From Planctomycetota bacterium (lineage in GTDB: Bacteria; Planctomycetota; UBA11346): a stretch of DNA of 64,000 bases. A program made the position numbers and the translations under genes. This document shows positions 1 through 41,421 of the stretch, in pieces (position 1 is the stretch's first letter; every line of letters begins with the position of its first letter). The DNA lies in NCBI GenBank assembly GCA_038231435.1, contig JBBRLJ010000012.1, forward strand, positions 46,690-110,689, read 5' to 3'. The notes under the pieces are model-generated. The model saw nothing but the letters and a program-made list of their open reading frames with translations, was not told the DNA's origin and searched no databases.

Positions 1-24
1 GGCATGCGGTCTTCATGTGGCGGC

Positions 25-1797
25 TCATGGCGCATAGAATGGTCCCGCTGAGGTATCATAGAAATCCCCGATCGCGTTCGCGTCGCTGAAGGCGGGGCTG
101 TAGAGGCGCCAGTGCTGGCGCGCGCCGCGGAACGAGCTCCCGTACGGAACGCACACCAGCTCCAGGCGCTTACCGGACAGGCGGTCCTCGACCACCGAGG
201 TCGCCACGGTCAGGCCGCCGACGCCGCCGAAGCGCCGGTAGCGCAGGATGCTGGTCGACAGCACCGGATACGCGCTCGGTTTGTTATCGAGATCGAGAGG
301 CGTCTCGGCGTAGTGCGGCACGTACACGGTGCGCGTGGAATCCACGGTCGCGCGCGCGGGAATGGTGCGGTCACCGTCGCTGATGTTGTACGGCAGCCGG
401 TAGGTGCGAGAAGTCAGGCGCCGGTCGTTGCGCGCGACGTCGCCGGTGTCCTGCCCGCCTCCGGCCATCCATACCCTGGTGCTCCAGTTCATCGAGGTCT
501 GGCCGCCGGCGACGGTGCCGCCCATGATCATCTGCAGGTACACCGAGCTGCGATCGTAGCAGGCATCATTGCCGACGCGCTCCGCGAGCACCGGCAGCGT
601 GACCAGGGCCCAGGTCCGCCCTTCGCGGAAATCGCAACCGAGGAATCCCGCGACATCGCGCGTGCCCCACGGATAGCTCCGGCCCCACAGGCCCGGCAGG
701 CTGTCCTGGCCGGCGCCTGGCGCCTCCGGATAACCCTTCGGGGTGGTGAAGAAATTGTCCGGCAGCGCGGGTGGTAGTGCGTGCCAATGGTCGTTCGGGC
801 CTTTCCCATCCTGGTCCTGGATGAACGGGCTGACCTCACCGGGCAGGTATTCGGCGAGGCCGTGCAGGCTCATGCGGCTGAAGGTCTGCCACGCGAGCAG
901 CGGGATGGCCTGGTTGTAGACGGTGCGCACGGGGCAGACGAGCGGCGGCATGGCGGGATCCGAGGCGTCGATCTCGCCGCTGACGGTGTACGGCCCTGGC
1001 GCCAAGCCGGCGAGCTTGCCGTCCATATCGCGCGCGAAGGCTGGCACCGGCGTTCCCGCGGGCGCGTAGGGGAACAGGGGATCCACCAGCTGCGGCGTGC
1101 CCCACGGCGAGGCGACGCCACTCGCGACATGCGCGAAGCGCATGTCGGTGCAGGCGACCAGGCGGTAGTCGCCGATGGCGAAGCGAGGATTGAAATGCCG
1201 GTAGTAGAGATCCCAGCTGCCGTTCGCGAGGAACGGCGTGGTGTTGCCCAGGATGTGGCTGCGGTCGATCGAGCGCGGATCGTGGGCGAGCATGACGTTG
1301 GGATTGGCGACCATGGACCACGCCGTGGTGAACGCGGGCCTTGCGGCATCGACCGGCTCGTCGAACGGCTGTACGTCGGGATCGGTGCTGGGCGAGAACG
1401 GCAGCGGCTGGAAGTGGCGCCGCGCCCCGTAACCCGGCTGCATGGGCAGGTACGAGGGATCGCTGCGAAGTCGCGTGAAGCCCTTGTTGTAGGGCTGGCT
1501 GGCATCGGCCTCGGAATGGTAGAAGTCGACGTCCTCGAGCGATGCTTGGAAGCCGACGCGCAGCAGCGAGTTCTCGGTGCTCAGGGCGTTGGTGATGGAG
1601 ATGGTGCGGCTCGCCAGGCGGAAGGCCGATACCGCGGTGAACACGATCACCATCGACAGCACCACCGAGATCATGATCTCGATCAGGGTGAACGCCGCGC
1701 GCGCTTCCGCCCGCGGAACGATGCGCGAGGGCGAGCGGGCGAGGCGCAGCAAGGTGGGCGCGACCGGCAGGCGTGATCGAAGTGCGGCGGGATCCAT
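25..1797 (-). CDS. large pilin-like protein (590 aa) with prepilin-type N-terminal cleavage/methylation motif
   Basis: ORF track 25..1797. The N-terminus reads ...EARAA|FTLIEIMISVVLSMVIVFTAVSAF (FTLIE plus hydrophobic helix, Glu at +5). The ATG at 1797 lies 3 nt after the stop of the upstream gene. The rest is W/P/Y/D-rich with no domain I recognise. Confidence 0.75.
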   Translation of the reverse strand: MDPAALRSRLPVAPTLLRLARSPSRIVPRAEARAAFTLIEIMISVVLSMVIVFTAVSAFRLASRTISITNALSTENSLLRVGFQASLEDVDFYHSEADASQPYNKGFTRLRSDPSYLPMQPGYGARRHFQPLPFSPSTDPDVQPFDEPVDAARPAFTTAWSMVANPNVMLAHDPRSIDRSHILGNTTPFLANGSWDLYYRHFNPRFAIGDYRLVACTDMRFAHVASGVASPWGTPQLVDPLFPYAPAGTPVPAFARDMDGKLAGLAPGPYTVSGEIDASDPAMPPLVCPVRTVYNQAIPLLAWQTFSRMSLHGLAEYLPGEVSPFIQDQDGKGPNDHWHALPPALPDNFFTTPKGYPEAPGAGQDSLPGLWGRSYPWGTRDVAGFLGCDFREGRTWALVTLPVLAERVGNDACYDRSSVYLQMIMGGTVAGGQTSMNWSTRVWMAGGGQDTGDVARNDRRLTSRTYRLPYNISDGDRTIPARATVDSTRTVYVPHYAETPLDLDNKPSAYPVLSTSILRYRRFGGVGGLTVATSVVEDRLSGKRLELVCVPYGSSFRGARQHWRLYSPAFSDANAIGDFYDTSAGPFYAP

Positions 1798-1800
1798 GGG

Positions 1801-4800
1801 TCAATCGCCGTTGTTCAGGCGCAGCACGGGATCGTAGACGTTGAAGCGTGCCACCGCCGCGGCGCGCAGGCGCGTGGTCTTTGGGATCGGGCCGATGTCC
1901 AGGACGCGGTTGTTGTTGCGATCGGCGCCCCAGTGGCCGAGCACGATGTCCTCGTTCTCGCGGGTGTATGCCCAGACCTGGGTCGCATCGAGGTTGGTCA
2001 TGGTGTCGATGAAGCGCTGCTGGCGGGTCGCGTCGAGCCAGACCAAGGCGTTCTCGGGATTGCCGGCGAACTGGCTGTCGGCGCGGTCATAGGCGTCCTT
2101 CGAATCGCCTGGCTGCAGCATCGGCCAGAACGAATCCACGGTGACGCCATCGGGCTTGGTCCGGATCGAGCGCGCGTGCTTGGCGAGATCGAGCGGCGCG
2201 CTCGGCGCCGTCTCGGCGTCCTCGTATTGCTTCCAATCGACGGCCCAGAACGCCAGCTGGCGATCGCGGTGGAAGGCCTGGAACGGGCGGTTGAGCCAGT
2301 AGCGGTCGGCGTCACTCGACCAGTTCCAGGATCCTCCGGCGCTACCGGGGGGTGCGAGCTGGGGATTGTACATCACCGAGGTCCACGAGGTCTCGTTCCA
2401 ACGCCCAGGTCCCAGGTGGCTGAGCGCGCATACCGGCGCGGCGGGCGAGGCTGGGACGGTACCCGTCCTGAAGCCGTCGCGGGTCGCGGGATTGGGCGGC
2501 ATGATCCAGCGATAGAAAGACTCACCCGATGACAAGAGCGTGCTGGTCGGCAGACCTTGAGGCACGCGCTGCGCGTGTCCGTCGGACGACGGTCCGCGCC
2601 CGGCATCCATGAACAGGTCCAGGAGCGCCAGCGGCTTGTCGACCATCACCTGATGGTTGGCCATGCGCGGCGCGCCCCAATCGTAGGGGTTCTCGCACCC
2701 GTACGCGGCCGCGAAGCGCATGCACGTCTCGTGGACGGTGCGCGCGAAGGCGCGGTCGTAATCGCTGCAGATGCGGATCAGCTGCTGGTTGTGGCCGACG
2801 GGATCGGCGAGGATGGGCGGGAAGGCGTTCGGATCGGCGCCGTGCGTGCCCATCATCTTGGTGTAGGTGCGCGCCAGCGGCGGCTGGATCTTGAGATTGC
2901 CGGTGGTCGCGCCGGGCACCGGGTTGCCGGCGATGTAGAGGTCGTCGGTGACGCGGTACTTCTGCACGCCCTCGCCCCGGTCCGGGTTTCGTTCGTTCCT
3001 GGCGAACCACTCGCGGTAGTCCTCCTCGAGGCATATCTCGTCGCCCTTGTAGAAGTGGATGGGCGCGGCGCTGTCGTTGGTGATGGTGATCGAGGTGGCG
3101 CCGGCCATGGCGTTCGCGGGGTCGTCGACCAGCAGCTTGGCGTCCTTGAGTCCGGTGATCGTGACGCCGGGGCGGAGCGGATCCGCGGCCTGGTACTGCC
3201 AGGTGAGCGATTCCCAATCGAGCAGCGCGAGCACGTCCGGAGCGATGAACGGCGGATCCCAGCCGGTCATGAGCATGGCGGCGTGGGCGAGGTAGCTCAG
3301 CGCCAGCACCTGCGCCGGGTGCGGTGGCAGCCGGGATGACGCGTGCGGATCGATGAGCGGGAACGCCATCAGTTCGAGCGGCCCGTATTCGTACGAATCG
3401 CAGTCGATCTGGGTGTTGGTGACGTTCGGGCGTACGCCGGGCGGGAAGGCGCTGCTCTTGGTGACCGGAGGGATGTCGGGAAACACCGCGTACGCCAGAT
3501 CGAGCGCCTTGTCGCGGTAGCTGGCGCGCATCTCGTAGGTGGGCAGCAAGGTGCTGTGAGGTGCGCCGGTGAATTTGCACAATTCGTTGCCGATCCACGG
3601 CGTGGGCGGGTAGTACGGATCCCAGCCATTCACCTTCACGCGCAGCGTCGAGGGCCGCGGTGGGAAAACCCCAGAGCCGACCTCGGTGTCTCTACCCACG
3701 GCGAGCGCGCCCTTCACCTGCTCTCCGAGGTACTTGGATTTGCGCGAGGGCGCTGGATCCGGCAGGATCTGGTACCAGTAGTTGTTGTAGGTGGCGCTGT
3801 CCTCGCTGGTCAGCAGCGCCATGACCGGCAGCCATCCGGCCTTCTCGTAATGGCTCGCCAGAGGCGCGGCGGCGTAGGCGTTCCAATCCGGAAGTGGCCG
3901 CAGGGTGTCGTTGAAGCCGGCAAGTCGCTGGAATGGCAGCCAACCGCGATCCCACAACGATCCGGGCGGGCAGGTGGCGGCGAAATACCTCCAGTCGCGG
4001 CCTTGATACCAGCCCGTGGATCCGGTGTTCCAGTCGCCGGCCGCGTCGGGCGCGACGTCGGCTGGGTCGATCGGCTTGCGCGTTTGGTCGCTCAGGGGGC
4101 TCCACGGCGTCGCGCGCAGCGGTCGGATCTGCCGCTCGTTCTGCGGCGCATCGGGGAAGGTCACTGGCGACCAGGCGAAGTGGCCACCGTCGCCCCACAC
4201 GATGCCATCGCCGTAGCCGAGGCCCGGTGGCGGGCTGCCGCTCGGCGACGCGGGAAGTCCCAGCATGTTCTGCCCGCGGATCGGACCACCATACGTGCCG
4301 GTGGCGGGATCGAACATCTTGTGCACCGGCCCGCGGCGGATTTCGTGTCCGGAGGCCCGCAACGCCACCCATGCGGGCGGGAACGGGTAGATCTCGTACC
4401 ACGGCCAACTCTCCACCGGATGGCTGGTGAGCGCATTCTGCTGCGCGTAGCCGGTGACCGCGAACACCAGCTTGTGCGCCTCCTGCGCCGGATTCAGGGT
4501 CAACGATTTGTCGCGCGCCGATGACACGGTCAGGCCGCGCACGTAGCCGGTATCCTGGTAGAGCAGGCAGCCGCCGGCGTCGAGCAGGCGCTGGATCTCG
4601 TCGTTGTCGCTATCGATGCGGCGCGCGATCTCGAGCGGCACGGGATACACGCCGGTCATCCATCCGCATAGGTAGCGCTCGATGTCGTGCTGGTAGGGCG
4701 ACGCGACCAGGTTGCAGTCGCGCAGGCGGTTCGCCCACCCGGGGATGGGCGGGCTACCCGCCGGAGCCAGGTTGGTGTTGAGATCAGGCGCGAGCGTGCC

Positions 4801-5001
4801 GTGGCCGTTGAAGCTGATCATCGGCGCGTGGAAATTCTCCATCAGCGTCAGCGCCGCTGAGCCCGCGTATAGTTGGTAGCGCGCGAGCTGCTGAGCCTTC
4901 AGGCCGATCGGCAGCAGCGCGATGGTGGTGAGCACCGCGATGCTCAGCACCAGCATCGAGATCACCACCTCGAAGAGCGTGAATGCCGAGCGCCCGCGCA
5001 C
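1801..5001 (-). CDS. giant pilin-like protein (~1066 aa) with prepilin-type N-terminal motif
   Basis: The track ORF is 1801..5841, but its first 280 codons overlap the 252-aa gene in another frame. An in-frame GTG at 5001, 2 nt after the upstream stop at 5004, gives MRGRSA|FTLFEVVISMLVLSIAVLTTIALLP. The remaining ~1000 aa have no domain I recognise. Confidence 0.7.
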   Translation of the reverse strand: MRGRSAFTLFEVVISMLVLSIAVLTTIALLPIGLKAQQLARYQLYAGSAALTLMENFHAPMISFNGHGTLAPDLNTNLAPAGSPPIPGWANRLRDCNLVASPYQHDIERYLCGWMTGVYPVPLEIARRIDSDNDEIQRLLDAGGCLLYQDTGYVRGLTVSSARDKSLTLNPAQEAHKLVFAVTGYAQQNALTSHPVESWPWYEIYPFPPAWVALRASGHEIRRGPVHKMFDPATGTYGGPIRGQNMLGLPASPSGSPPPGLGYGDGIVWGDGGHFAWSPVTFPDAPQNERQIRPLRATPWSPLSDQTRKPIDPADVAPDAAGDWNTGSTGWYQGRDWRYFAATCPPGSLWDRGWLPFQRLAGFNDTLRPLPDWNAYAAAPLASHYEKAGWLPVMALLTSEDSATYNNYWYQILPDPAPSRKSKYLGEQVKGALAVGRDTEVGSGVFPPRPSTLRVKVNGWDPYYPPTPWIGNELCKFTGAPHSTLLPTYEMRASYRDKALDLAYAVFPDIPPVTKSSAFPPGVRPNVTNTQIDCDSYEYGPLELMAFPLIDPHASSRLPPHPAQVLALSYLAHAAMLMTGWDPPFIAPDVLALLDWESLTWQYQAADPLRPGVTITGLKDAKLLVDDPANAMAGATSITITNDSAAPIHFYKGDEICLEEDYREWFARNERNPDRGEGVQKYRVTDDLYIAGNPVPGATTGNLKIQPPLARTYTKMMGTHGADPNAFPPILADPVGHNQQLIRICSDYDRAFARTVHETCMRFAAAYGCENPYDWGAPRMANHQVMVDKPLALLDLFMDAGRGPSSDGHAQRVPQGLPTSTLLSSGESFYRWIMPPNPATRDGFRTGTVPASPAAPVCALSHLGPGRWNETSWTSVMYNPQLAPPGSAGGSWNWSSDADRYWLNRPFQAFHRDRQLAFWAVDWKQYEDAETAPSAPLDLAKHARSIRTKPDGVTVDSFWPMLQPGDSKDAYDRADSQFAGNPENALVWLDATRQQRFIDTMTNLDATQVWAYTRENEDIVLGHWGADRNNNRVLDIGPIPKTTRLRAAAVARFNVYDPVLRLNNGD

Positions 5002-5003
5002 GC

Positions 5004-5762
5004 TCAGAGCTCTTGCGTCGCCGCGATGCCGATGGGGTAGAGGATCACGCCGAGAGCGTAGCCGCGCTTGTCCGCTCCGCCGGTGAAATCGAGAGTCTGC
5101 ACGTCCATCTTGGCGCACACCGGACTGTCGGCGATGCAGAACGCGCGGTTGCCGGTCAGGCCCATGCCCACCGCCGGCGCTCTGGGCGCCTTGCCGGCGA
5201 CGACCGCCGCCGCGTCGATGGGCAGCCCGGTGCGGTATTGGGCGTAGATCACCAGCACGCGATCGGTGGTGGTGACGGCATCGGCTGCGGTCGGCGCGCA
5301 GCCCATGACGACGCTGCGTCCGAACGTGCACTTCGCCACCGGCGGGTTCACCGAGTCGTTGGTGCTGGTGCTGGTCGCGTCGGCGCGCAGCACCGCAGTC
5401 TCGGGGCTCGCGGTCAGTGAGCCAGCGTCCCGGTTGTCGTAGATCAGCGCCGCATATGGGCGCTCGCCCGCGCGTTGAGTGATCATCAGCCCGAAGTGCT
5501 TGGGCGCCGTGCCGTCGTCGCTGTCGGGCATGGCGTGGCGGATCGCCAGGTTCCGGGCCTGGCGCCAGCACTGCATGATGTCGGTGGCGGCAGCCGAGAC
5601 CGCGCCCTTGCGCAGCGTCTTCAAGACCGCCGGCATCATCATCGACATCACCAGCATCATGATGCCGACCACCACCACGAGTTCGATCGCGGTGAAGCCC
5701 CGGCGGGCGGCGCAGGGGGTGGCGCTGGCGGTCGAGACGGGCTGAGGCAGTGGCTTGGCCAT
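5004..5762 (-). CDS. pseudopilin / minor pilin-like protein (252 aa), GspH/FimT-like in size
   Basis: The N-terminus reads MAKPLPQPVSTASATPCAARRG|FTAIELVVVVGIMMLVMSMMMPAV. This is a canonical G|FTxIE prepilin motif followed by a hydrophobic helix. It is the first gene of the three-gene cluster. Confidence 0.8.
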   Translation of the reverse strand: MAKPLPQPVSTASATPCAARRGFTAIELVVVVGIMMLVMSMMMPAVLKTLRKGAVSAAATDIMQCWRQARNLAIRHAMPDSDDGTAPKHFGLMITQRAGERPYAALIYDNRDAGSLTASPETAVLRADATSTSTNDSVNPPVAKCTFGRSVVMGCAPTAADAVTTTDRVLVIYAQYRTGLPIDAAAVVAGKAPRAPAVGMGLTGNRAFCIADSPVCAKMDVQTLDFTGGADKRGYALGVILYPIGIAATQEL

Positions 5763-5850
5763 GGCACCCTCGGGGAGCGGCGGCGCACCCCTCGGCAGCG
5801 AGGGTGAGCGCCAGGTTTGGATATACGTATCCGCACCGCACCGAGGAATG

Positions 5851-5866
5851 TTACATCTAGACGTAA
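5851..5866. promoter_or_regulatory. AT-rich 16-nt near-palindrome TTACATCTAGACGTAA between pyrC and the pilin-like operon
   Basis: 14 of 16 positions are symmetric. It sits in the only AT-rich patch (5820-5880) upstream of the operon. Confidence 0.3.
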
Positions 5867-5876
5867 GTCCTTATAT

Positions 5877-7211
5877 TTAAAGGCATTCCACGAATGACAT
5901 CGGCAGGCCCGCGGGAGCCCCCACGAGCGCTCCGTCGCGCATCGCGAGCGCGCCCCGGATGACCGTCATCACCGGCCAGCCGGTGACGCGCATGCCGTCG
6001 AACGGCGTCCAGCCGACCTTGGTGGCCATGGCTTTGTTCTCGATCACCCGCTGGGCGCCGAGATCGACGATGGTCAGGTCGGCATCGTAGCCGCAGGCGA
6101 TGCGGCCCTTGCGCGCGATGCCGAAGATGCGCTGCGGTCCGGCAGACGTCAGATCGACGAAGCGTTCGAGGGTCAGGCGCCCCTTGGCGACGTGGTCGAG
6201 CATCACCGGCAGCAGCGTCTGCACGCCAGGCATGCCCGATGGCGTGTTCGGGTAGGCCGCGTCCTTCTCGGCGCGGGTATGCGGGGCGTGATCGGTGCCG
6301 AGCACGTCGACGGTGCCGTCGGCGATGGCTGCCCACAGCGCGGCGCGGTGGCGTTCGTCGCGCACCGGAGGATTCATCTGCGCGTAGGCGCCGAGGCGGT
6401 CGTAGCAGTCGGGCGCCACCAGGGTCAGGTGGTTGGGCAGCACCTCGACGGTGGCGTGGTCTTTGTGGGCCCGCAGCAGCTCGAGCTCCTCGGCGGTGGT
6501 CACGTGCAGCACGTGAACGCGCTTGCGGCGCTCCTTCGCCAGTCGCAGCAGGCGTCGCGTCGCGATCAACGCGGTCTCGACATCACGCCACATCGGGTGC
6601 ATGCGCACGTGCGCGCCATGGTCGGGGATGAGCGAGCGCCGTTCCTTGAGTCGCGACTCGTCTTCGCAATGCACCGCCATGCGCCGCGATACCGAATCGA
6701 GGATGCGTCCGAGCACGGCCTCGTCGTCGACCAGCAGCGAGCCGGTGGATGAGCCCATGAACACCTTCACGCCGCAGCACCCGGGCAGGCGCTCGAGAGC
6801 GCCGAGCTGATCGGCGTTCTCGGCGGCGCCGCCCATATAGAAGGCATGATCGACCCAGGCGCGTCCGCGCGCGCGCGCGAGCTTGTCTTCGAGGCCCTCG
6901 CGCGTGGTCATGCTCGGCTTGGTGTTCGGCATCTCGAACAGCGCCACCACGCCGCCGAGGGCGGCGCCGGCGGTTCCGGATGCGAGGTCTTCCTTGTGCT
7001 CGAGCCCGGGCTCGCGGAAGTGCACCTGCGAGTCGATGACGCCCGGCAGCACGTGCAGGCCGCGGGCCTCGATGACGTCCGCGGCCGTGGCCTTGGACAG
7101 ATCGCCGATGGCCGCAAAGCGTCCGGCGCGGATGCCGATGTCGCAGAGCGCGCGTCCGGCGTGGCTGACGACGGTGCCGCCACGGATGATCAGGTCGAAT
7201 GACGCGTTCAT
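5877..7211 (-). CDS. pyrC: dihydroorotase (cyclic amidohydrolase family)
   Basis: From the internal ATG at 7211 the product reads MNASFDLIIRGGTVV...GVIDSQVHFREPG...GTDHAPH. The HxH and DHAPH metal motifs are typical of dihydroorotase/allantoinase-type enzymes. The upstream 110 codons of track ORF 5877..7541 are R/P-rich junk. Confidence 0.85.
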   Translation of the reverse strand: MNASFDLIIRGGTVVSHAGRALCDIGIRAGRFAAIGDLSKATAADVIEARGLHVLPGVIDSQVHFREPGLEHKEDLASGTAGAALGGVVALFEMPNTKPSMTTREGLEDKLARARGRAWVDHAFYMGGAAENADQLGALERLPGCCGVKVFMGSSTGSLLVDDEAVLGRILDSVSRRMAVHCEDESRLKERRSLIPDHGAHVRMHPMWRDVETALIATRRLLRLAKERRKRVHVLHVTTAEELELLRAHKDHATVEVLPNHLTLVAPDCYDRLGAYAQMNPPVRDERHRAALWAAIADGTVDVLGTDHAPHTRAEKDAAYPNTPSGMPGVQTLLPVMLDHVAKGRLTLERFVDLTSAGPQRIFGIARKGRIACGYDADLTIVDLGAQRVIENKAMATKVGWTPFDGMRVTGWPVMTVIRGALAMRDGALVGAPAGLPMSFVECL

Positions 7212-7342: not shown

Positions 7343-8041
7343 CTAGTGGAGGGACGTGGCCTGGACCGGCGACGGCACGACGACATGGCGCGCAGGGAAG
7401 GACAGGTCGAACGGTTCGTCCGGGGCGGGAGCTTGGTAGGTCAGGATGAGTGCGAAGCGGTCTGCGCCGGACTGGTTGGTGAACGAGGCGTGTGGCAGGC
7501 GGTCGCCGAAGACGATGGCGCCGCCCTGGGGGACTTCGCACGCCACGTCGTCGGCCTCGCTCCAGGCCGGGTCGCTGATGACGTTGGTGAATTCGCCGTT
7601 GGTGCCCGCGCCTCCGCCATTGCTATGTGCCCATTCGCGCAGATGCCCGCCGCGCGCCACGCGCATGCAGCCATTGTCGCGCCGGGCATCGTCCAGCGCG
7701 AGCCATACCGACATCTTGGCGCGCGTGCCGCGCCAATACGCCTGGTCGACGTGCCATGGCGTCGCGAAGCGCTTCGCCCCCGACTTGAACACGAACTTGT
7801 CGCTCATGAACATCACGCCATCGGGCATCAGCGGCGCGATCAGCCCGACCAGCCGCGGATCGCCCGCGAGCCGCCTGAAGCGCTCGCTGACCACCGCCAC
7901 CCCGACCATCACCGTCGCCTCGGGCCCAGCATGCTCGCGCATCAGCGCCACCGCCTCAGCCTTCAGGTCCTCGCACTCCTTCCGCGTCAGCGCCCCCGTC
8001 GCGACCACGTACCCGTCGCGGGCGTAATCCCCCGCGATCAT
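7343..8041 (-). CDS. phytanoyl-CoA dioxygenase (PhyH) family Fe(II)/2OG oxygenase
   Basis: Track ORF 7343..8122 starts on TTG in AT-rich, low-GC3 sequence, so the start is uncertain. I prefer the ATG at 8041 (MIAGDYARDGYVV...). A PWHVDQAYW (HxD) motif and a distal His (RLPHASF) support the call. It is divergent from an AraC gene. Confidence 0.7.
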   Translation of the reverse strand: MIAGDYARDGYVVATGALTRKECEDLKAEAVALMREHAGPEATVMVGVAVVSERFRRLAGDPRLVGLIAPLMPDGVMFMSDKFVFKSGAKRFATPWHVDQAYWRGTRAKMSVWLALDDARRDNGCMRVARGGHLREWAHSNGGGAGTNGEFTNVISDPAWSEADDVACEVPQGGAIVFGDRLPHASFTNQSGADRFALILTYQAPAPDEPFDLSFPARHVVVPSPVQATSLH

Positions 8042-8160
8042 GCGTTTACCATCATCTCCCATCGCGTTGTCGTAGTTCATGATGTCATTGTATAGCCAGG
8101 AATAATCGAGATGATTTAGCAAGACAGCCAGTATCAGTTAGCAATTTCCATCACGGATTT

Positions 8161-8201
8161 CCCTCTTCCCTCTTCTTCGCTTCCCCGCTCCTCCTCCTTC
8201 C
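8161..8201. repeat. CT-rich tract headed by (CCCTCTT)x2, directly upstream of the AraC start codon
   Basis: ccctctt ccctctt cttcgct tccccgc tcctcct ccttcc, then the ATG at 8202. Confidence 0.6.
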
Positions 8202-9002
8202 ATGCCCCACCCCATCTCCGCCTCCCCCATCGAGAGCGTCCTGCTGGTCGAACGCATCGAGCCACGTCTCGGTCGGTTCGAGGCCACGTCCCTTCCTGGC
8301 CACCTGGTGCACGTGGTGATGAGCGGCCGGGTGCGCCAGGAGTGTAACGGCCGCGTCTACGATCTCGCCCCGCGCTCCGCCATCTGGTACCACGAGGACG
8401 AACTGGTGCGCGGCGAATGCTTCGAGCCCTGGTCGTTCTATTCGGTCAACTTCATCGCGCCGTCGCTGCCACCGCCGGAATTCGCCGCGCGCTTGGTGCG
8501 ACCACCATGGACGCGCACCATCGCCTGCTGCCGCGCGATGCATGCCGCATGGCACGACCACGCGCTGTCCGCCCAGCGACGCGAACTCGAGGTGCATGCG
8601 GCGCTCAATGGTTTGCTCGCCTGCCTCGCGAGCGTGTCGAGCGCCGAGCCGGTGCGCACGGACGAGCGCTCGCGCCTGTGGTGGTGGCTCGAGACCGAGG
8701 TGCGCAAGCGCCTCGATGAACGCCTCGACATGCCGGCTCTCGCGCGGCTCACCGGCGTCAGCGCGGCGACCATCGAGCGCTCGTGCCGGCACGCGGTGGG
8801 ATTGCCGCCGATGCGCCGCCTCAAGCGCCTGCGCTTGAGCCTCGCCAAGGGCCTGCTGGCCCGCGAGGACCTGGGCATCGGCGAGATCGCGAAGCTGGTG
8901 GGATACGACCGCGTCCACGAATTCTCGCGGGATTACCGCAAATTCTACGGAGTGCCGCCCAGCCACGGGCGGCCCGCGGGGCAGGCGCGCCGGGCCCGCT
9001 AG
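8202..9002 (+). CDS. AraC family transcriptional regulator
   Basis: The C-terminal AraC-type HTH reads LARLTGVSAATIERSCRHAVGLPPMRRLKRLRLSLAKGLL...IGEIAKLVGYDRVHEFSRDYRKFYGVPPS. Confidence 0.8.
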   Translation: MPHPISASPIESVLLVERIEPRLGRFEATSLPGHLVHVVMSGRVRQECNGRVYDLAPRSAIWYHEDELVRGECFEPWSFYSVNFIAPSLPPPEFAARLVRPPWTRTIACCRAMHAAWHDHALSAQRRELEVHAALNGLLACLASVSSAEPVRTDERSRLWWWLETEVRKRLDERLDMPALARLTGVSAATIERSCRHAVGLPPMRRLKRLRLSLAKGLLAREDLGIGEIAKLVGYDRVHEFSRDYRKFYGVPPSHGRPAGQARRAR

Positions 9003-36339: not shown

Positions 36340-37611
36340 TCAGGCGTGGCGCAGGGCTTCGACTGGCTGCATGCGGGCGGCCTTGACCGCCGGGGATAGC
36401 CCCGCGACCACGCCCACCACCATCGAGATGCCGACTGAGAGCATCACCGACCACGGCGTGATCAGGATCGGCCAGCCAGCGAGTTCGTTCACCAGCGCTG
36501 CTCCGACCAGGCCGACGAGGATGCCGACCAGCCCGCCGACCATCGCCATGACCACGGTTTCGACCAGGAACTGGTTGCGGATGTCGCTGCGGCGCGCGCC
36601 CACGGCGCGACGGATGCCGATCTCGCGCGTGCGTTCGAGCACGTTTGCGAGCATGATGTTCATGATGCCGATGCCACCCACCAGCAGTGAGATGCTGGCA
36701 ATCGAAAACATCACGATCGCGAAGATGGTCTGGGTGCGGCGCTGCTGTTCGAGCAGTTCGAGCGGTACCACCACTTCGATATCGCCGCGTTCATGGGTTC
36801 GCCCGAGCACCTTGCGCACCAGTGCGCCCGCGGTGAGCACGTCCGCCGTTCCGGCGAATCGCATCACCAGCTGGGCGATCTCGAGCCGCGACACCTGATA
36901 GGACCCGGCTTCGTACTCGACGCTGAGCAGCCCAAAGTAGGTCTTCGCGCTGGTCTCGGGGATGAAGATGGTGCGATTGAGATCCTCGGCTCCCAGCCCG
37001 CCGATGCCGGCGGTACGCTTGTTCTCGAGCACCCCGACCACGCGCAGCCACTGCCCGGAGATCTGCACATCCTTGCCGAGCGGATCCTGGAGCCGGAAGA
37101 GGTCGCGCGCGACCTCGGCGCCCAGCACCGCCACCGGCAGCAGCCGCTCCATGTCGAGCTGGCAGATGAATCTCCCCGAGGCGATGGATAGGTGCGCGGC
37201 CGCCGCGTAGAGCGGTTCGGTGGCGATGATGCGCGTCTCGATCTCGCGCGATCCGTTGAATACCTTCTGTCGCACCTGTCGGGTGGCCACGTTCTCGATC
37301 ATGTCCGGCACCACTCGCGCAAGGTGCTGGCGGTCCTTGAAGGTCAGGCCGTAGGCGAGCACGTTGGAGGTGTCGTTCTTATCATCCTTGGTCTTGGGCT
37401 TCACAGTGGGGCGCACGCTCTTCACCAGCACCCGGTCCATGCCCATCTGCTGGATCGCGCCGAGCGCCTCGGAGCGCGCTCCCTCGCTGATCGCTAGCAT
37501 GGCGATGACCGCGCCGACGCCGAAGACCATGCCGAGCATGGTCAGCAGCGAGCGCAGCTTGTGGTGGGCGAGGCCGACGAGCGAGGTCGCGAGCAGCGGA
37601 GGCAGGATCAC
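36340..37611 (-). CDS. ABC transporter permease, MacB/FtsX-type
   Basis: A GTG at 37611 overlaps the upstream stop (GTGA). The N-terminal TM is LRSLLTMLGMVFGVGAVIAMLAISEGA, followed by a large periplasmic domain. The C-terminal FtsX region includes ERTREIGIRRAVGARRSDI. Confidence 0.8.
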   Translation of the reverse strand: MILPPLLATSLVGLAHHKLRSLLTMLGMVFGVGAVIAMLAISEGARSEALGAIQQMGMDRVLVKSVRPTVKPKTKDDKNDTSNVLAYGLTFKDRQHLARVVPDMIENVATRQVRQKVFNGSREIETRIIATEPLYAAAAHLSIASGRFICQLDMERLLPVAVLGAEVARDLFRLQDPLGKDVQISGQWLRVVGVLENKRTAGIGGLGAEDLNRTIFIPETSAKTYFGLLSVEYEAGSYQVSRLEIAQLVMRFAGTADVLTAGALVRKVLGRTHERGDIEVVVPLELLEQQRRTQTIFAIVMFSIASISLLVGGIGIMNIMLANVLERTREIGIRRAVGARRSDIRNQFLVETVVMAMVGGLVGILVGLVGAALVNELAGWPILITPWSVMLSVGISMVVGVVAGLSPAVKAARMQPVEALRHA

Positions 37612-38372
37612 GATCCGGCCTCGGCCTGATCCCTGGCCTGCGATGCGACCAGCGATCCGTCGAGCATCCGCACCACCCGCTGCGCCTTGGCGGCGACACC
37701 GTGATCGTGGGTGACCATGATCACGGTGAGACCCAGCGCATTGAGCTCCTGGAAAAGTCCAATGATCTCGGCGCCGGTTCGGCTGTCGAGATTGCCGGTG
37801 GGCTCGTCGGCGACCAGCAGCGACGGCTCGCACACCAGCGCTCGCGCGATGGCGCCGCGCTGCATCTCGCCGCCCGACATCTGCGCCGGGTGATGGGTGA
37901 CCCGGTCCTTCAGTCCGACTCGTTCGAGCGCGGCGAGCGCCCGGCGGCGGCGTTCGGCCGCGCCCACGCCGAGATAGAGCATCGGCAGCTCGACGTTCTC
38001 GGTCACGGTCATCTGCGGGATCAGGTTGAAGAACTGGAAGACGAATCCGACCTGGCGGCCGCGCAGCCGGGCGAGCCGATCGTCGTCGAGACCCGAGACC
38101 TCCTCGCCGGCGAGCTTGTAGCTGCCGCCGTCTGGGCGGTCGAGGCAGCCGATGATGTGCATCAGCGTGGTCTTGCCGGAACCCGAGGGGCCCATCAGCG
38201 CCACGAATTCACCGCGTGCGATGCCGAGATCGATGCCCTTGAGCACCGGCAGTTCACGCGCGCCGAGGCGATAGGTGCGGCGGATGTCCACGAGCTCTAC
38301 GATAGGCGCGCCGGTGGCCGTCGCGGCTGCCATCGCAGGGGTCATTCCAGTGGAGCCCAGGTGTCCGGTCAT
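37608..38372 (-). CDS. ABC transporter ATP-binding protein (MacB/LolD-type)
   Basis: Walker A GPSGSGKTT, signature LSGGEMQRGAIARAL and Walker B LLVADEPTGNLD. The ATG overlaps the upstream stop (ATGA at 38369-38372). Confidence 0.9.
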   Translation of the reverse strand: MTGHLGSTGMTPAMAAATATGAPIVELVDIRRTYRLGARELPVLKGIDLGIARGEFVALMGPSGSGKTTLMHIIGCLDRPDGGSYKLAGEEVSGLDDDRLARLRGRQVGFVFQFFNLIPQMTVTENVELPMLYLGVGAAERRRRALAALERVGLKDRVTHHPAQMSGGEMQRGAIARALVCEPSLLVADEPTGNLDSRTGAEIIGLFQELNALGLTVIMVTHDHGVAAKAQRVVRMLDGSLVASQARDQAEAGS

Positions 38373-39889
38373 TTCGCCGGCGTTGCGCCCGCACCCGGCG
38401 TGGCGGCGGAGGATTCTCCGGAAGCCTTGTCGTCCTTGGCGCCGGGATCGATCGAGAGCATCACCACCGTCTCGCCGGCCTGCAAACCAGCCGTGATCAC
38501 CACGTGGTCATCGTTGCTCCGCCCGAGAGTGATGGGGCGCTTCGCGACCGAGCCCCGGGTCTCCACGTAGCAGAAGTGTTCGTCACCTTTGCTCGAGACC
38601 ATGTCGACCGGGATATGCAGGACCTTTTCCAGGTGGCCGACCAGGACCTCGACCTTGGTCGACATGCCGGGACGGAACGCGGTGCCTACGGTGTCCCCCA
38701 GGCTGCAGGTGGTCATGTACTGCTTGCCTTCGCCCTGCCTCCGCCAATCCGTCGACGCGGTCGGGGCGATCTTGAGCAGCGCTCCGACGAACACCTTGCC
38801 GTCGATGCCTTCGACGCGCGTGGTCACGCGCTGGCCCTCGGCGATCCTCGAGATGTCGACCTCGTTCACCCCGAATTCCGCAACCATGTCGGTGAGGTCG
38901 GGTAGGGTCATCATCGGCTGGTTCTGGTAGATGTCCGCGCCGACCTGCAAGCGGTTGCCGTAGTTGTAGTTTTCGTTGCCCGAGCCGTAGACCACCAGCC
39001 CGTCGTTGGTGGCGAGCACGATCAGCGACTGCTTCTTGTCGGTGAGATCCGCGAGACGGGTCTCCATCTGCGTGAGGATGCTCTGCTGCTTCTGGATCTC
39101 GGCCTCCTTCTGCGCGTGCAGGGTCTCCATCTGCTGGGCGATGCGCTGCTTCGCGAGCGATGCATTGTCCACTTCGGCGTCGTGCTTGGATTTCTCGGTG
39201 GGATACTCGTACTGCTGGAAGATCTCGAGTTCGCGCGTCTTGTGGGTCACGGCCAGGGCCTTCTCGCGCGCCTCGAGCTCGGCGACACGCATTTCGGTGC
39301 CGGTGACGAAGCCCTTCTCGAGCAGCATGGGCATGCGCTGGGATTTCTCCTTTGAATCGGTGAGCTCGGACGACGCCTTCTCGAGCGCCAGGCGCAGGTC
39401 CTGCTCCTGCAAGGGGGCCTTGCCCTTCTCGTACTGCTCGAGCGCCATGCCCGCGGTGATCAGGGCGCGCTCGGCGTCTGCGGTTTGCTTCTGCGCGTCG
39501 AGCTCCTGCAGCTTGAGCTCGCGCCTGGCGTTCTCGAGCGCGCGTTCGGCGTTCTCCTTCTCCTGCTGGGTCTGGGTGAACTGGTTGTCCAGATCCTTGT
39601 TCTCCAGCTCGATGAGCTTGTCGCCCTTCTTGACCGTCGTGCCTTCGGCGATCAGCCACACCGCCTTGCCGTTCACCTTGCACTCGATGAAGATCGGCTT
39701 CTGCGATTTGAGTGAGCCGTGCTCGGTGATGACCACGTCGAGGTCCGACACCGTCGCCTGGTAGCGGGCGAGCACGGTGCCGCTGCCGATCGCGTTCTTG
39801 CCGCAGCCCGCCATCGCCACCGCCATCGAGGCGGATGCGGCCACGGCGACCGCGAACGCCATCATGGACGGGATCCGGCCGAGGATCAC
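38369..39889 (-). CDS. HlyD/MacA-type periplasmic adaptor (membrane fusion protein) with long coiled coil
   Basis: A GTG at 39889 overlaps the TolC stop (GTGA). The lipoprotein-like signal is MILGRIPSMMAFAVAVAASASMAVAMAGC. A long E/K/Q/L coiled-coil segment and a beta-barrel C-terminus follow. Confidence 0.8.
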   Translation of the reverse strand: MILGRIPSMMAFAVAVAASASMAVAMAGCGKNAIGSGTVLARYQATVSDLDVVITEHGSLKSQKPIFIECKVNGKAVWLIAEGTTVKKGDKLIELENKDLDNQFTQTQQEKENAERALENARRELKLQELDAQKQTADAERALITAGMALEQYEKGKAPLQEQDLRLALEKASSELTDSKEKSQRMPMLLEKGFVTGTEMRVAELEAREKALAVTHKTRELEIFQQYEYPTEKSKHDAEVDNASLAKQRIAQQMETLHAQKEAEIQKQQSILTQMETRLADLTDKKQSLIVLATNDGLVVYGSGNENYNYGNRLQVGADIYQNQPMMTLPDLTDMVAEFGVNEVDISRIAEGQRVTTRVEGIDGKVFVGALLKIAPTASTDWRRQGEGKQYMTTCSLGDTVGTAFRPGMSTKVEVLVGHLEKVLHIPVDMVSSKGDEHFCYVETRGSVAKRPITLGRSNDDHVVITAGLQAGETVVMLSIDPGAKDDKASGESSAATPGAGATPAK

Positions 39890-41421
39890 GGCAGCACTCC
39901 CACCGTGGTCGCGTATTCCGGCGCGGCGTCGGACCACGCGCCCGCGTCGCTCACCATCAATGTCCCGGTGTCGTGGCGCAGCTGCAGTTCGGCGCTGCGG
40001 TAACTGACGATCGCGCCGAACCACGCGTTCTCGCCCTGTCGCACCTCGTTCTGCGCCTCGACGATGTCGAGGTTGGAGATCAGGCCGGCCTTGAAGTCGA
40101 GGAAGGCCTTTTCGGCGCGATTGCGCGTCTGGGTGCGGTTGCGCTCCTGGATGAGCAGCGAAGCCTCGGCCGAGCGCAAGTTGCGGATGGCTTCGAGCAC
40201 TTGGCGGATGATCGATTGCTTCTGGGCCTCGAGTGCGCGGCTGGCCTGGATCCTGGCGATCATCGCCTGCTCGTACGACAGCTCTTCGCCACGGCGGTTG
40301 AACGGGATCTGCAGGGTCATGCCGACGGTGTAGCTGGGATCGCCCGCTACCGGACTGTGCCAGTCGGAAGCCGGCGCGCCTCCGTAGCCGACGCTGGCGT
40401 TGAGATCGAGCTGGGGTAGCAAGGCCCGGCGCGACAAGGTGAGCGCGCGCTGCGCGTCCGCGACCCGGTCATCGGTGGTCATCAGGTCGAGTCGGTGCGT
40501 CATTGCCGTGGCGATGGCGCGCTTCGCGTCCACCTCGAGCTTCGGGCCCGAGGGCGGAGCGGTGTCGATGGCCAGGCGTTCGTCGACCGGGAGGTTGAGA
40601 TCGAACTTGAAGGCGTCGAGCGCCGCGTTGAACGCCGCCTCGGCGTCCACCAGCGATTGGCGAGCGGCGAGCAGCGCCACCTCGGCGCGGAAGACGTCAT
40701 TGGCGTTGGATTTGCCGATCGACATCAGGGCGCGCGATTGCTCGTAGAGGAATTCGGAGCGGCCGACACCCATGCGCGCCTGCTCGAGCGCGTGCTGCTG
40801 GCCCTGCAGGGACCAGAACGTGCGACTGATGCCGAGCGTCAGCTCCTCGCGGTACTGTTCGTAGCCACGCATGCTGTAGATGTAGCTGCGCTCGGCCGAG
40901 GTCAGGCCCTCGCGCCAGACCAGCGAGCCGGCATTGCGCAGCAGCGGTTGCAGGAGCGAGGCGCTCGAGGACGTGGTCTTGGTTTCGGCCGCGCCTGGCG
41001 CGTGCGAGACCTGGGCGGTGGTGCTGACGCTGGCGGTGCCGCCGGTCGGCAGGGTCTGGCTCGCGCCGAGGGTGGCGGTCTCGGCATCGCTCGGCGCGGA
41101 GTTGCCGCGTCCGGACATGCTGGCGCCGAGCGTACCGGTCGGCTGCGGACCATAACTCGCGCGGGCGTTGCGCAGGGTCATGGCGAGGAGCTTCAGCTCC
41201 TCGTCGCGCGACTGCTTCTCGCGTCCCTGGGTGTGGGCGTAGCGCAGCGCGTCGGCGAGCGTCAGGATCTGCGCGCCCGATGGATTGTCGATCGCCGCGG
41301 CGGCGTCCTCGGCCTCTGGCGGCCCCATGACTGGCGGTAGCTCGGCCGCGCTGCCGCTTGCGCAGGCGAAGGCGCACGCGAGCGAGATGACGGCGAGGAG
41401 GTGCAAGCGGTAGCGGTGCAT
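39886..41421 (-). CDS. TolC-family outer-membrane efflux protein
   Basis: From the ATG at 41421 the signal is MHRYRLHLLAVISLACAFACA. Two-repeat architecture with characteristic L..A...A......A....Y.P patterns. Confidence 0.8.
   Translation of the reverse strand: MHRYRLHLLAVISLACAFACASGSAAELPPVMGPPEAEDAAAAIDNPSGAQILTLADALRYAHTQGREKQSRDEELKLLAMTLRNARASYGPQPTGTLGASMSGRGNSAPSDAETATLGASQTLPTGGTASVSTTAQVSHAPGAAETKTTSSSASLLQPLLRNAGSLVWREGLTSAERSYIYSMRGYEQYREELTLGISRTFWSLQGQQHALEQARMGVGRSEFLYEQSRALMSIGKSNANDVFRAEVALLAARQSLVDAEAAFNAALDAFKFDLNLPVDERLAIDTAPPSGPKLEVDAKRAIATAMTHRLDLMTTDDRVADAQRALTLSRRALLPQLDLNASVGYGGAPASDWHSPVAGDPSYTVGMTLQIPFNRRGEELSYEQAMIARIQASRALEAQKQSIIRQVLEAIRNLRSAEASLLIQERNRTQTRNRAEKAFLDFKAGLISNLDIVEAQNEVRQGENAWFGAIVSYRSAELQLRHDTGTLMVSDAGAWSDAAPEYATTVGVLP

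Follow-up and report, generated by a model that had tools for sequence, protein, structure and literature searches.

What is the role of pilin-like proteins of very large size that are encoded apart from any pilus or secretion machinery? The question is raised by the window analyzed here, a stretch of 64,000 nucleotides from a Planctomycetota bacterium (GenBank assembly GCA_038231435.1, contig JBBRLJ010000012.1). Near its first nucleotide lie three minus-strand genes, designated D, B and C in the order of their transcription, followed by the start of a fourth gene of a type designated A. From a sequence-only reading of this DNA, it was proposed that their products could be a tip or adhesin complex displayed on a pilus or pseudopilus, with the machinery elsewhere. 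Our analysis supports this proposal as an inference from the prepilin signals, the gene order H-I-J-K and a fourth gene without Glu at position +5 (Glu5). We consider it probable that the genes form a cassette of minor pilins (pseudopilins) for the priming or the tip of a type IV filament, in which the I- and J-type subunits are giant and modular and the machine is encoded elsewhere.

Prepilin signals of D, B and C

The six-frame translation of the 64 kb was searched with a regular expression for class-III motifs, and only three matches were found: RRG/FTAIE in D, RSA/FTLFE in B and RAA/FTLIE in C (the slash marks the predicted cleavage site). D has a 22-residue leader ending in RRG/FTAIELVVVVGIMMLV, B begins with M/V-RGRSA/FTLFEVVISMLVLSIAVL, and C has a 35-residue leader ending in ARAA/FTLIEIMISVVLSMVIVF. 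Against the Pfam N_methyl model (PF07963; cut-off 21.2 bits), D scored above the cut-off with 21.8 bits, and B and C scored below it with 17.8 and 14.9 bits. All three were under the cut-off of TIGR02532. In the families, the N_methyl model matched 46 of 46 C members and 8 of 40 long B members. The residues G/A(-1), F(+1) and E(+5) were kept over 81 B and 46 C sequences of 20–60% identity. Family-wide, position -1 was only G or A, save for two mis-detected motifs, position +1 was F in at least 90%, and Glu5 (E11 in the numbering of B) was invariant. D, B and C all have the signal features of type IV pilin-like proteins, and the motif search and the family alignments bear out the earlier claim of class-III signals with Glu at +5 and a hydrophobic helix in all three.

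Two features of these signals had been pointed out as unusual. Ala at position -1 in two of the three is true of B and C, but it is a normal family trait and not an anomaly, because G and A are about equally frequent there (G 32 and A 26 in the B family; A 17 and G 16 in the C family). The leader of about 35 residues in C is conserved in the close homologues; with the in-frame TTG at codon 16 as start codon, it would be 20 residues long. The leaders of the C family are mostly 4–22 residues long (median, about 9), and a conserved leader of 25–35 residues (…LPLxPTLxRLA…) was found only in the subfamily to which C of the window belongs.

Gene structure and the fourth gene

The open reading frames (ORFs) and the junction sequences confirmed three adjacent minus-strand genes separated by 2–3 nt: the D-B junction is CTC-TGA-gc-GTG with a gap of 2 nt, and the B-C junction is GAT-TGA-ccc-ATG with a gap of 3 nt. 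A 1346-residue ORF at 1801–5841 (minus strand) was also considered as the true B gene and was rejected on two grounds. The G+C content at third codon positions (GC3) across 5004–5762 was 0.91 in the frame of D versus 0.56 in the frame of the B extension, and the homologues of B start 5–8 residues ahead of FTLFE. The longer frame is an artefact, because the high G+C content of the window (about 68%) leaves it open through D; longest-ORF calling would fuse or mis-start B. The D protein contains two Cys pairs (145/155 and 209/216), and the C protein carries a conserved C-terminal RGARQ motif. A promoter and terminator scan of positions 1–6200 gave no site above chance and none inside the operon.

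The operon had been suggested to continue past the window edge from an ATG at position 16. The continuation itself stands, since a fourth ORF is open at the edge and the relatives carry more genes. The start codon does not, as in the extended sequence described below the position-16 ATG lies in another frame, which ends after 7 codons. The fourth ORF starts at position 35, with an 11-nt overlap with C, or at position 5. A 2-kb Logan contig with an identical C gene added 157 nt past window position 1; an exact look-up of the B protein and an exact 48-mer search of metagenome contigs yielded no further overlapping sequence. The predicted N-terminus of the fourth protein, MRHEPPHEDRMPMIAGASRAGTRHRRG/AVLVIVIGLASVLLVLAVAFMARMRADSQ (also written RRG/AVLVIVIGL), has a hydrophobic pilin-type helix without Glu5, and these sequence features assign it to the GspK/PilX/ComGG type. 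In their own sets, GspK and PilX are likewise the members that lack Glu5 (PMC7541494). The A family begins with R-x-G/T-I-L-I-I-V-A-G-I-S-A-L-L-A-S-L...F-L-x-R-M-R, also without Glu5, and its members have about 330–500 residues. The pattern R-x-G/T-x-L-I-I-V-A-G occurred in about 30 loci and matches the type of the fourth gene of the window.

Proposed subunit types from gene order and helix type

Profile searches gave weak matches that were type-specific and in line with the gene order. With the NCBIfam models, D matched Verru_Chthon D, PpdD, GspG and GspH weakly, and PilA(Myxo) over residues 20–162. The B family matched PilV (23 of 27 members), Verru_Chthon B (18/27), GspI (7/27) and ComGE (5/27), in the helix only. 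The C family matched PRK10557 (34/46), ComGF (20/46) and GspJ (3–4 of 46), of which PRK10557 is presumably the model of E. coli PpdB, a GspJ/PilW-type minor pilin. The A family matched GspK (11/31) and ComGG (7/31) and had no Pfam match. Alignment by hhalign to GspI, GspJ and GspK of E. coli K-12 gave 29, 50 (probability 86%) and 43 columns, respectively, again only in the helix.

These results support, by order and helix type, the assignment of D as GspH/FimU-like, B as PilV/GspI-like, C as GspJ/PilW/ComGF-like and A as GspK/PilX/ComGG-like, and the order D-B-C-A with A lacking Glu5 corresponds to the order H-I-J-K with a Glu5-less K of the type II secretion system (T2SS). The assignment rests on order and helix type and not on globular-domain homology, because the matches are confined to the N-terminal helix. 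The equivalog models of GspH/I/J/K (TIGR01708, TIGR01707, TIGR01711 and NF037980) reached 10–25 bits at best versus cut-offs of 44–130, in the helix only. PilV (TIGR02523) matched B of the window with 24.9 bits versus a cut-off of 52.2, over the N-terminal 55 or so positions only. The Pfam models PilW and PilX_N had no match in the A or C families. The searches that had been recommended, with N_methyl, GspH/I/J/K, PilV/W/X, PilY1 and DUF1559 models, thus revealed no characterized family for the large parts of the proteins. Membership in PilY1, DUF1559/SBP_bac_10, the Verru_Chthon families and the GspH/I/J/K equivalogs was rejected on scores or domain absence.

Distribution and synteny of the B-C-A cassette

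Among word-indexed proteins, B had 27 homologues, all unnamed or 'hypothetical' and some labelled Planctomycetes, and C had 13. A profile search of the same proteins with the B-family alignment (A1) added 1 sequence. In the exhaustive profile search, the B family comprised 286 clusters (50% identity) at E<=1e-30 and 382 clusters at the looser limit of E<=1e-10, and its proteins were 430–1763 residues long. With one genome per species, 143 stretches encoded relatives. From about 21 uncultured metagenome-assembled genomes, 76 loci were kept, and synteny was analyzed by tblastn and ORF clustering (loci are cited below by L numbers). Their labels were all Planctomycetota, except for one Brocadiaceae, which is a planctomycete family.

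C lay directly after B in nearly all loci, and an A-like gene was called in 38 of the 76. B-C-A is the minimal conserved module. Homologues of D were found directly upstream of B in L002, L003, L004, L008, L015 and L037. In the long-B subfamily, to which B of the window belongs, the gene order was a GspG-like gene (about 200 residues; TIGR01710, E=1.4e-11), D, B, C, A and a pilin-like FTLIELLVV protein of about 450 residues. In the window, a pyrC-like gene stands at the place of the G-like gene of the relatives. The genes downstream of A in the relatives had no Pfam domain, or N_methyl alone. On the Pfam-annotated contigs of the closest relatives, the last gene of the operon encodes a small lipoprotein of about 170–216 residues; in the operon studied here, this gene would lie past the window edge. 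One such operon-end protein, at 4502–5008 of L090, has a lipoprotein-type signal (…VVGGC), with equivalents of 216 and 190 residues, and judging from this signal it may be an accessory or pilotin-like factor.

The cassette is present in many copies per genome. Among the 80 best matches, SMAG_U12054 had 15 loci (at least 16 copies), VAR_61_metabat_110 had 7, and many other genomes had 3–6. Some cassettes were tandem or divergent pairs. The source organism of the window is probably multi-copy as well, because two cassettes of 45–51% identity were found in the same sequencing run as the C gene of the window. Close homologues of C (37–39% identity) also occurred at 1599–3566 of L080 and 3–1385 of L081. 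L080 had no B upstream and no A-like gene downstream, with a gene for a conserved 290-residue protein coming next. L081 likewise had no A-like gene after the C homologue and the conserved 290-residue protein next, and its upstream side ends at the contig end. These may be stand-alone or decayed cassettes.

Large parts of B and C

The conservation profile of B showed conserved blocks at residues 1–50, 101–200, about 551–600, 751–800, 901–950 and 1001–1066, and the regions between them were present in only 16–60% of the relatives. The core of B is about 640 residues, and B of the window carries about 500 residues of lineage-specific inserts. Because conserved blocks lie at both ends of B, the modules appear to have been inserted into a scaffold and not simply grafted onto the C-terminus. 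Two near-invariant motifs were found in the blocks. The loop G-A-D-R-N-x-N-x-x-x-D-x-G near the C-terminus is similar in sequence to Ca2+ sites of an EF-hand-like kind with 9 residues (D-x-N-x-N-x-x-x-D). The other, R-x-D-S-D-N-D-E-I-x-x-L-L-D-x-G-G, was modelled by AlphaFold2 (AF2) with a confidence of 83–91.

The richness in W, P and Y that had been noticed in the large proteins was confirmed. Trp made up 3.3% of B and 1.9% of C versus 1.5% of the other window proteins, Tyr 4.1% and 4.2% versus 1.7%, and Pro and Asn were also enriched in both. The earlier statement that no recognizable domain follows the pilin helix held as well. For the globular parts of A, B and C, there was no sequence match in Pfam, NCBIfam or the PDB; when the alignments of B and C were searched as profiles against the PDB, only pilin helices or noise came up. 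The top Foldseek matches of the B model (JmjC, NqrF and lamin Ig) were discarded, having probabilities of 0.21 or less. Carbohydrate-binding modules (CBMs) were found in two of 40 long B relatives: CBM96 at residues 1356–1510 of P0155 (1763 residues; E=1e-22), and CBM_5_12 in another. Modular pilins are defined as having a pilin N-terminal module and one or more non-pilin modules within one polypeptide (Raynaud et al. 2021). The sizes of B and C (1066 and 590 residues), the variable inserts and the CBMs in two relatives would fit this, but the models of the window proteins yielded neither a boundary nor a fold of a module.

Machine genes

Pfam scans of all other predicted genes of the window (5.9–64 kb) detected no ATPase, platform protein, secretin or prepilin peptidase of a T2SS or type IV pilus (T4P), in agreement with the sequence-only reading. 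The six Pfam-annotated cassette contexts contained no machine genes. When about 1.3 Mb, mostly cassette flanks, was scanned for ATPase and secretin motifs, only the E. coli control matched. No gsp operon (secretin, ATPase, platform, L/M/C proteins) was located in the window or in the cassette flanks scanned.

Proposed function and alternative explanations

The signals, the order of the genes, the size and paralogy of the families, the genomic context and the absence of known domains are observations, whereas we infer the processing, the assembly of a tip complex, the ligand binding and its link to glycans, as follows. D, B and C would be made as prepilins, and a peptidase encoded elsewhere would cut the leader after the Gly or Ala at -1. 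Their hydrophobic alpha1 helices with Glu5 would sit in the inner membrane, and D, B and C would form, together with the Glu5-less K-type A, a staggered priming complex; this would initiate the filament on a machine whose genes lie elsewhere and would finally occupy the tip. The I-type B and the J-type C would be modular, with a conserved scaffold and large variable modules, rich in aromatic residues and Pro and without a known fold. The independently regulated B-C-A cassettes would then be a repertoire of alternative tips for one machine, directed to different extracellular ligands, which are most plausibly glycans.

Several observations weigh against this proposal. Within the window and the adjoining 160 nt or so, neither the prepilin peptidase nor the assembly machine of the organism was located. 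The similarity to GspH/I/J/K, PilV/W/X and Com minor pilins lies entirely in the N-terminal helix, far under the curated cut-offs. The AF2 model of B (27 sequences) had a mean pLDDT (predicted local distance difference test) of 53.5 and no pilin head domain, and Foldseek with this model against the PDB gave no match at E<=1e-3. The AF2 model of C (13 sequences; pLDDT 34.7) was unusable. A D-type or major-pilin gene is absent from most cassettes, and a subunit of about 115 kDa would need to pass the outer-membrane channel. Evidence for the link to glycans comes from a minority of the loci and from two fused CBMs, and such genes are plentiful in these genomes in any case.

A different role, which we regard as rather unlikely, is that of T2SS pseudopilus tips for cargo selection, in which each triad adapts a shared piston to secreted enzymes and no surface adhesin is involved. 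The closest loci begin with a GspG-like gene and have the order G-H-I-J-K, and A members match the GspK model. Exported-looking alpha-galactosidases are encoded directly downstream of the cassette in L088, a GH27-like cluster lies by the cassette in L034 and L040, and GspK has been proposed to contact T2SS substrates (PMC7541494). However, no gspC/D/E/F/L/M gene was found beside any cassette examined, B matches PilV better than GspI, and hydrolase genes are missing next to most cassettes. Classical T2SSs are not known to possess more than 10 alternative sets of tips or pseudopilins of 60–190 kDa. Somewhat less likely again is that the proteins are processed by the peptidase and never polymerized, remaining as periplasmic binding or scaffolding proteins anchored by alpha1, as considered for DUF1559 proteins. 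Their very large size, the lack of a nearby machine and the lack of a major pilin or D-type gene in most cassettes would fit this, and the proteins of the large N_methyl expansions of planctomycetes fractionate with membranes (PMC8567305). On the other hand, a strictly kept B-C-A order whose third member is a Glu5-less K type marks a priming complex rather than a set of independent anchored proteins, Glu5 is invariant, and no SBP_bac_10 domain is present.

It is very improbable that the likeness to pilins is a coincidence and the FTxxE segments are no more than N-terminal transmembrane anchors or Sec signals on unrelated surface proteins. B and C of the window do fall under the Pfam N_methyl cut-off, two of the three proteins have Ala at -1, and a globular pilin domain was not detected. 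Against this, the 64 kb contain exactly three such motifs, in adjacent genes, and G/A(-1), F(+1) and E(+5) are conserved while the remainder diverges to 20–30% identity. All 46 C-family members match N_methyl, and the type-specific matches and the gene order are not expected by chance. The sequence-only reading had itself named two outcomes that would speak against a new tip complex. The large proteins did not turn out to be a known family beside a complete T2SS or T4P locus, and the FTxxE segments did not prove to be plain transmembrane anchors.

Comparison with known systems

Minor-pilin tip complexes set what a type IV filament binds or secretes, and the known ones consist of four small pilins, sometimes with a separate large adhesin. 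The GspH-GspI-GspJ-GspK set of the T2SS, with its GspIJK tip heterotrimer and GspH as the adaptor to GspG, is also encoded by four consecutive genes with class-III signals. As in that set, the third member here is of the J type with a long helix and the fourth is a Glu5-less K type, an I-J-K-like triad is minimal, and a GspG-like gene precedes it in the closest loci. In contrast, GspI and GspJ have about 125 and 195 residues versus 1066 and 590 in B and C of the window, the large subunit is of the I type and not K, and nothing is similar beyond alpha1. The cassettes also lie outside gsp operons and are many per genome.

FimU-PilV-PilW-PilX with PilY1, of the type IVa pilus (T4aP) of P. aeruginosa, is likewise encoded in an orphan operon apart from the machine genes, and B best matches PilV. 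Orphan minor-pilin operons are normal. PilY1 is about as large as B, but its beta-propeller (PilY1/PilC) had no Pfam match in B or C at E<=1, and the large module here is inside a pilin. No T4aP model reached its cut-off, and 1–3 minor-pilin clusters in the T4aP system compare with 3–16 or more cassettes per genome here. For the three alternative orphan minor-pilin clusters of M. xanthus, it was proposed that the tips they yield differ in their properties (PMC7541494). Modular pilins, onto which adhesion or lectin modules are grafted, have been described, among them PilB-vWA and PilC-lectin of S. sanguinis, CofB and ComZ (Raynaud et al. 2021, PMC8179133). B and C share with them a pilin N-terminus and, as it appears, bulky non-pilin modules that are presumed to be tip-exposed, and some relatives carry CBM96 or CBM_5_12. 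They differ in that their modules match no database signature and that one I-J-K-type cassette has two putative modular pilins.

Within the superphylum of Planctomycetes, Verrucomicrobia and Chlamydiae (PVC), the Verru_Chthon A–D families of another phylum (TIGR02600, 02598, 02599 and 02596; Verrucomicrobium spinosum and Chthoniobacter flavus) form a multi-copy prepilin-type cassette. They are matched weakly and in order, D by D (27 bits versus a cut-off of 70), B by B (19.3 versus 51.4) and C by C (8.8 versus 256.5), that is, 9–27 bits versus cut-offs of 51–256. The matches cover the first 30–56 profile positions, none extending past position 56. The Verru_Chthon B, C and D profiles have 151, 361 and 196 positions and thus describe small proteins, and TIGR02600 (Verru_Chthon A) had no match in 31 A-type relatives. 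The large protein of the Verru_Chthon cassette is A. A literature search found no paper that mentions these families or their TIGR accessions. Planctomycetes also have very large, genome-scattered expansions of N_methyl proteins (SBP_bac_10/DUF1559) that fractionate with membranes (PMC8567305). These are alike in phylum, prepilin signal, scattered location and strong expansion. Unlike them, the proteins studied here are encoded in ordered cassettes of three to six genes and not by single genes, and SBP_bac_10 (PF07596) had no match in D, B and C at E<=1, nor in 40 B and 46 C relatives.

What is new here is the size and the unassigned nature of the modules, their place in two subunits, I and J, of an I-J-K triad, and the degree of multiplication, up to 16 or more per genome, seen so far only in an uncultured planctomycete lineage. 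A, B and C are three sizeable families without a name, a domain signature or a structure. If the cassettes are alternative tips for one machine, they would be the most extreme modular tip diversification yet. Uncultured Planctomycetota are important degraders of polysaccharides, and such tips could account for their recognition of many substrates by pili-like fibres. Several hundred 'hypothetical proteins' would also gain a function open to testing, as would, by analogy, the Verru_Chthon cassettes of Verrucomicrobia.

Genes around the cassettes and the possible link to glycans

Regulators and carbohydrate-active enzymes (CAZymes) recur around the cassettes. A regulator with a GntR helix-turn-helix and a LacI-type sugar-binding domain (AraR-like) was found in 12 of the 76 loci, and in six of them it lay directly upstream of B, mostly in divergent orientation. 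A pair of an extracytoplasmic function (ECF) sigma factor and a FecR-PA14 anti-sigma factor directly flanked the cassette in L030, L065, L074, L034 and L040. In L092 (6377–12544), such a pair follows B-C-A and overlaps the end of the cassette at the stop and start codons. By eye, a GH27-like gene cluster was recognized in three loci, and it adjoins the cassette in L034 and L040. Other neighbours were CE2 and trehalase-like genes and a 3-keto-disaccharide hydrolase. This enrichment of sugar regulators and CAZymes is suggestive but not proven, because these genomes are rich in such genes. At 8181–20854 of L088, a divergent LacI-family repressor, B-C-A and two same-strand Melibiase_2 (alpha-galactosidase) proteins with He_PIG, Big and PKD domains were found together, a layout that resembles a polysaccharide-utilization locus.

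Pairs of an AraC regulator and a PhyH dioxygenase also recur near the cassettes. In the window, a PhyH-type Fe/2-oxoglutarate dioxygenase (7343–8122, minus strand) and an AraC-family regulator (8202–9002, plus strand) are divergent and lie upstream, beyond the pyrC-like gene. A relative with 43% identity and another family member also had this pair close to the cassette, and AraC and PhyH clusters were present in several loci.

A more specific view would be that B-C-A is a planctomycetal glycan-capture system, with interchangeable, substrate-regulated I-J-K-type tips whose giant modules bind particular polysaccharides on a shared, possibly retractile fibre. The tips would be under the control of LacI/AraR-type repressors, AraC regulators or ECF sigma/FecR-PA14 pairs. 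We regard this specific view as doubtful. Dextran-binding fibres have been seen on Planctomycetes (Boedeker et al. 2017, PMC5394234), and if the view is true, the tips would be the missing specificity component of these fibres and a functional analogue of the polysaccharide-utilization loci of Bacteroidota.

Coordinates of the operon and other genes of the window

The features of the operon are listed in Table 1.

Table 1. Sequence features of the D-B-C operon and of the fourth gene (window positions)
Feature	Position	Strand	Description
Gene D	5004..5762	-	252 aa; ORF call, GC3 0.91, N_methyl match; proposed GspH/FimU-type minor pilin
D leader, class-III site and alpha1-N	5628..5762	-	predicted cleavage after Gly22, codon 5699-5697
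Gene B	1801..5001	-	1066 aa, GTG start; proposed PilV/GspI-type subunit bearing large module
B class-III signal peptide and alpha1-N	4912..5001	-	predicted cleavage after Ala6, codon 4986-4984
B acidic motif, residues 128-143	4573..4620	-	second acidic motif, DxDxD type, near-invariant
B loop, residues 1025-1037	1891..1929	-	near-invariant columns in B-family alignments
Gene C	25..1797	-	590 aa; proposed GspJ/PilW/ComGF-type subunit
C long leader, class-III site and alpha1-N	1618..1797	-	predicted cleavage after Ala35, codon 1695-1693
Start of A-like fourth gene	1..35	-	gene cut by window edge; frame and overlapping Logan contig

The upstream neighbour of the operon, called pyrC in the sequence-only reading, is a dihydroorotase-type amidohydrolase by Pfam. 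The other genes of the window include those for AraC, Nth, RecG, an M20 peptidase, YjeF, DinB, GH20, an SNF2 helicase, EamA, MacB/HlyD, IlvB, a Ser/Thr kinase, a DEAD helicase, TrpF and GH127. At 36340–40024 (minus strand), a MacB/FtsX-type ABC permease gene lies next to that of a HlyD-family adaptor, with no tie to pilus machinery, and this pairing suggests a tripartite efflux or export system.

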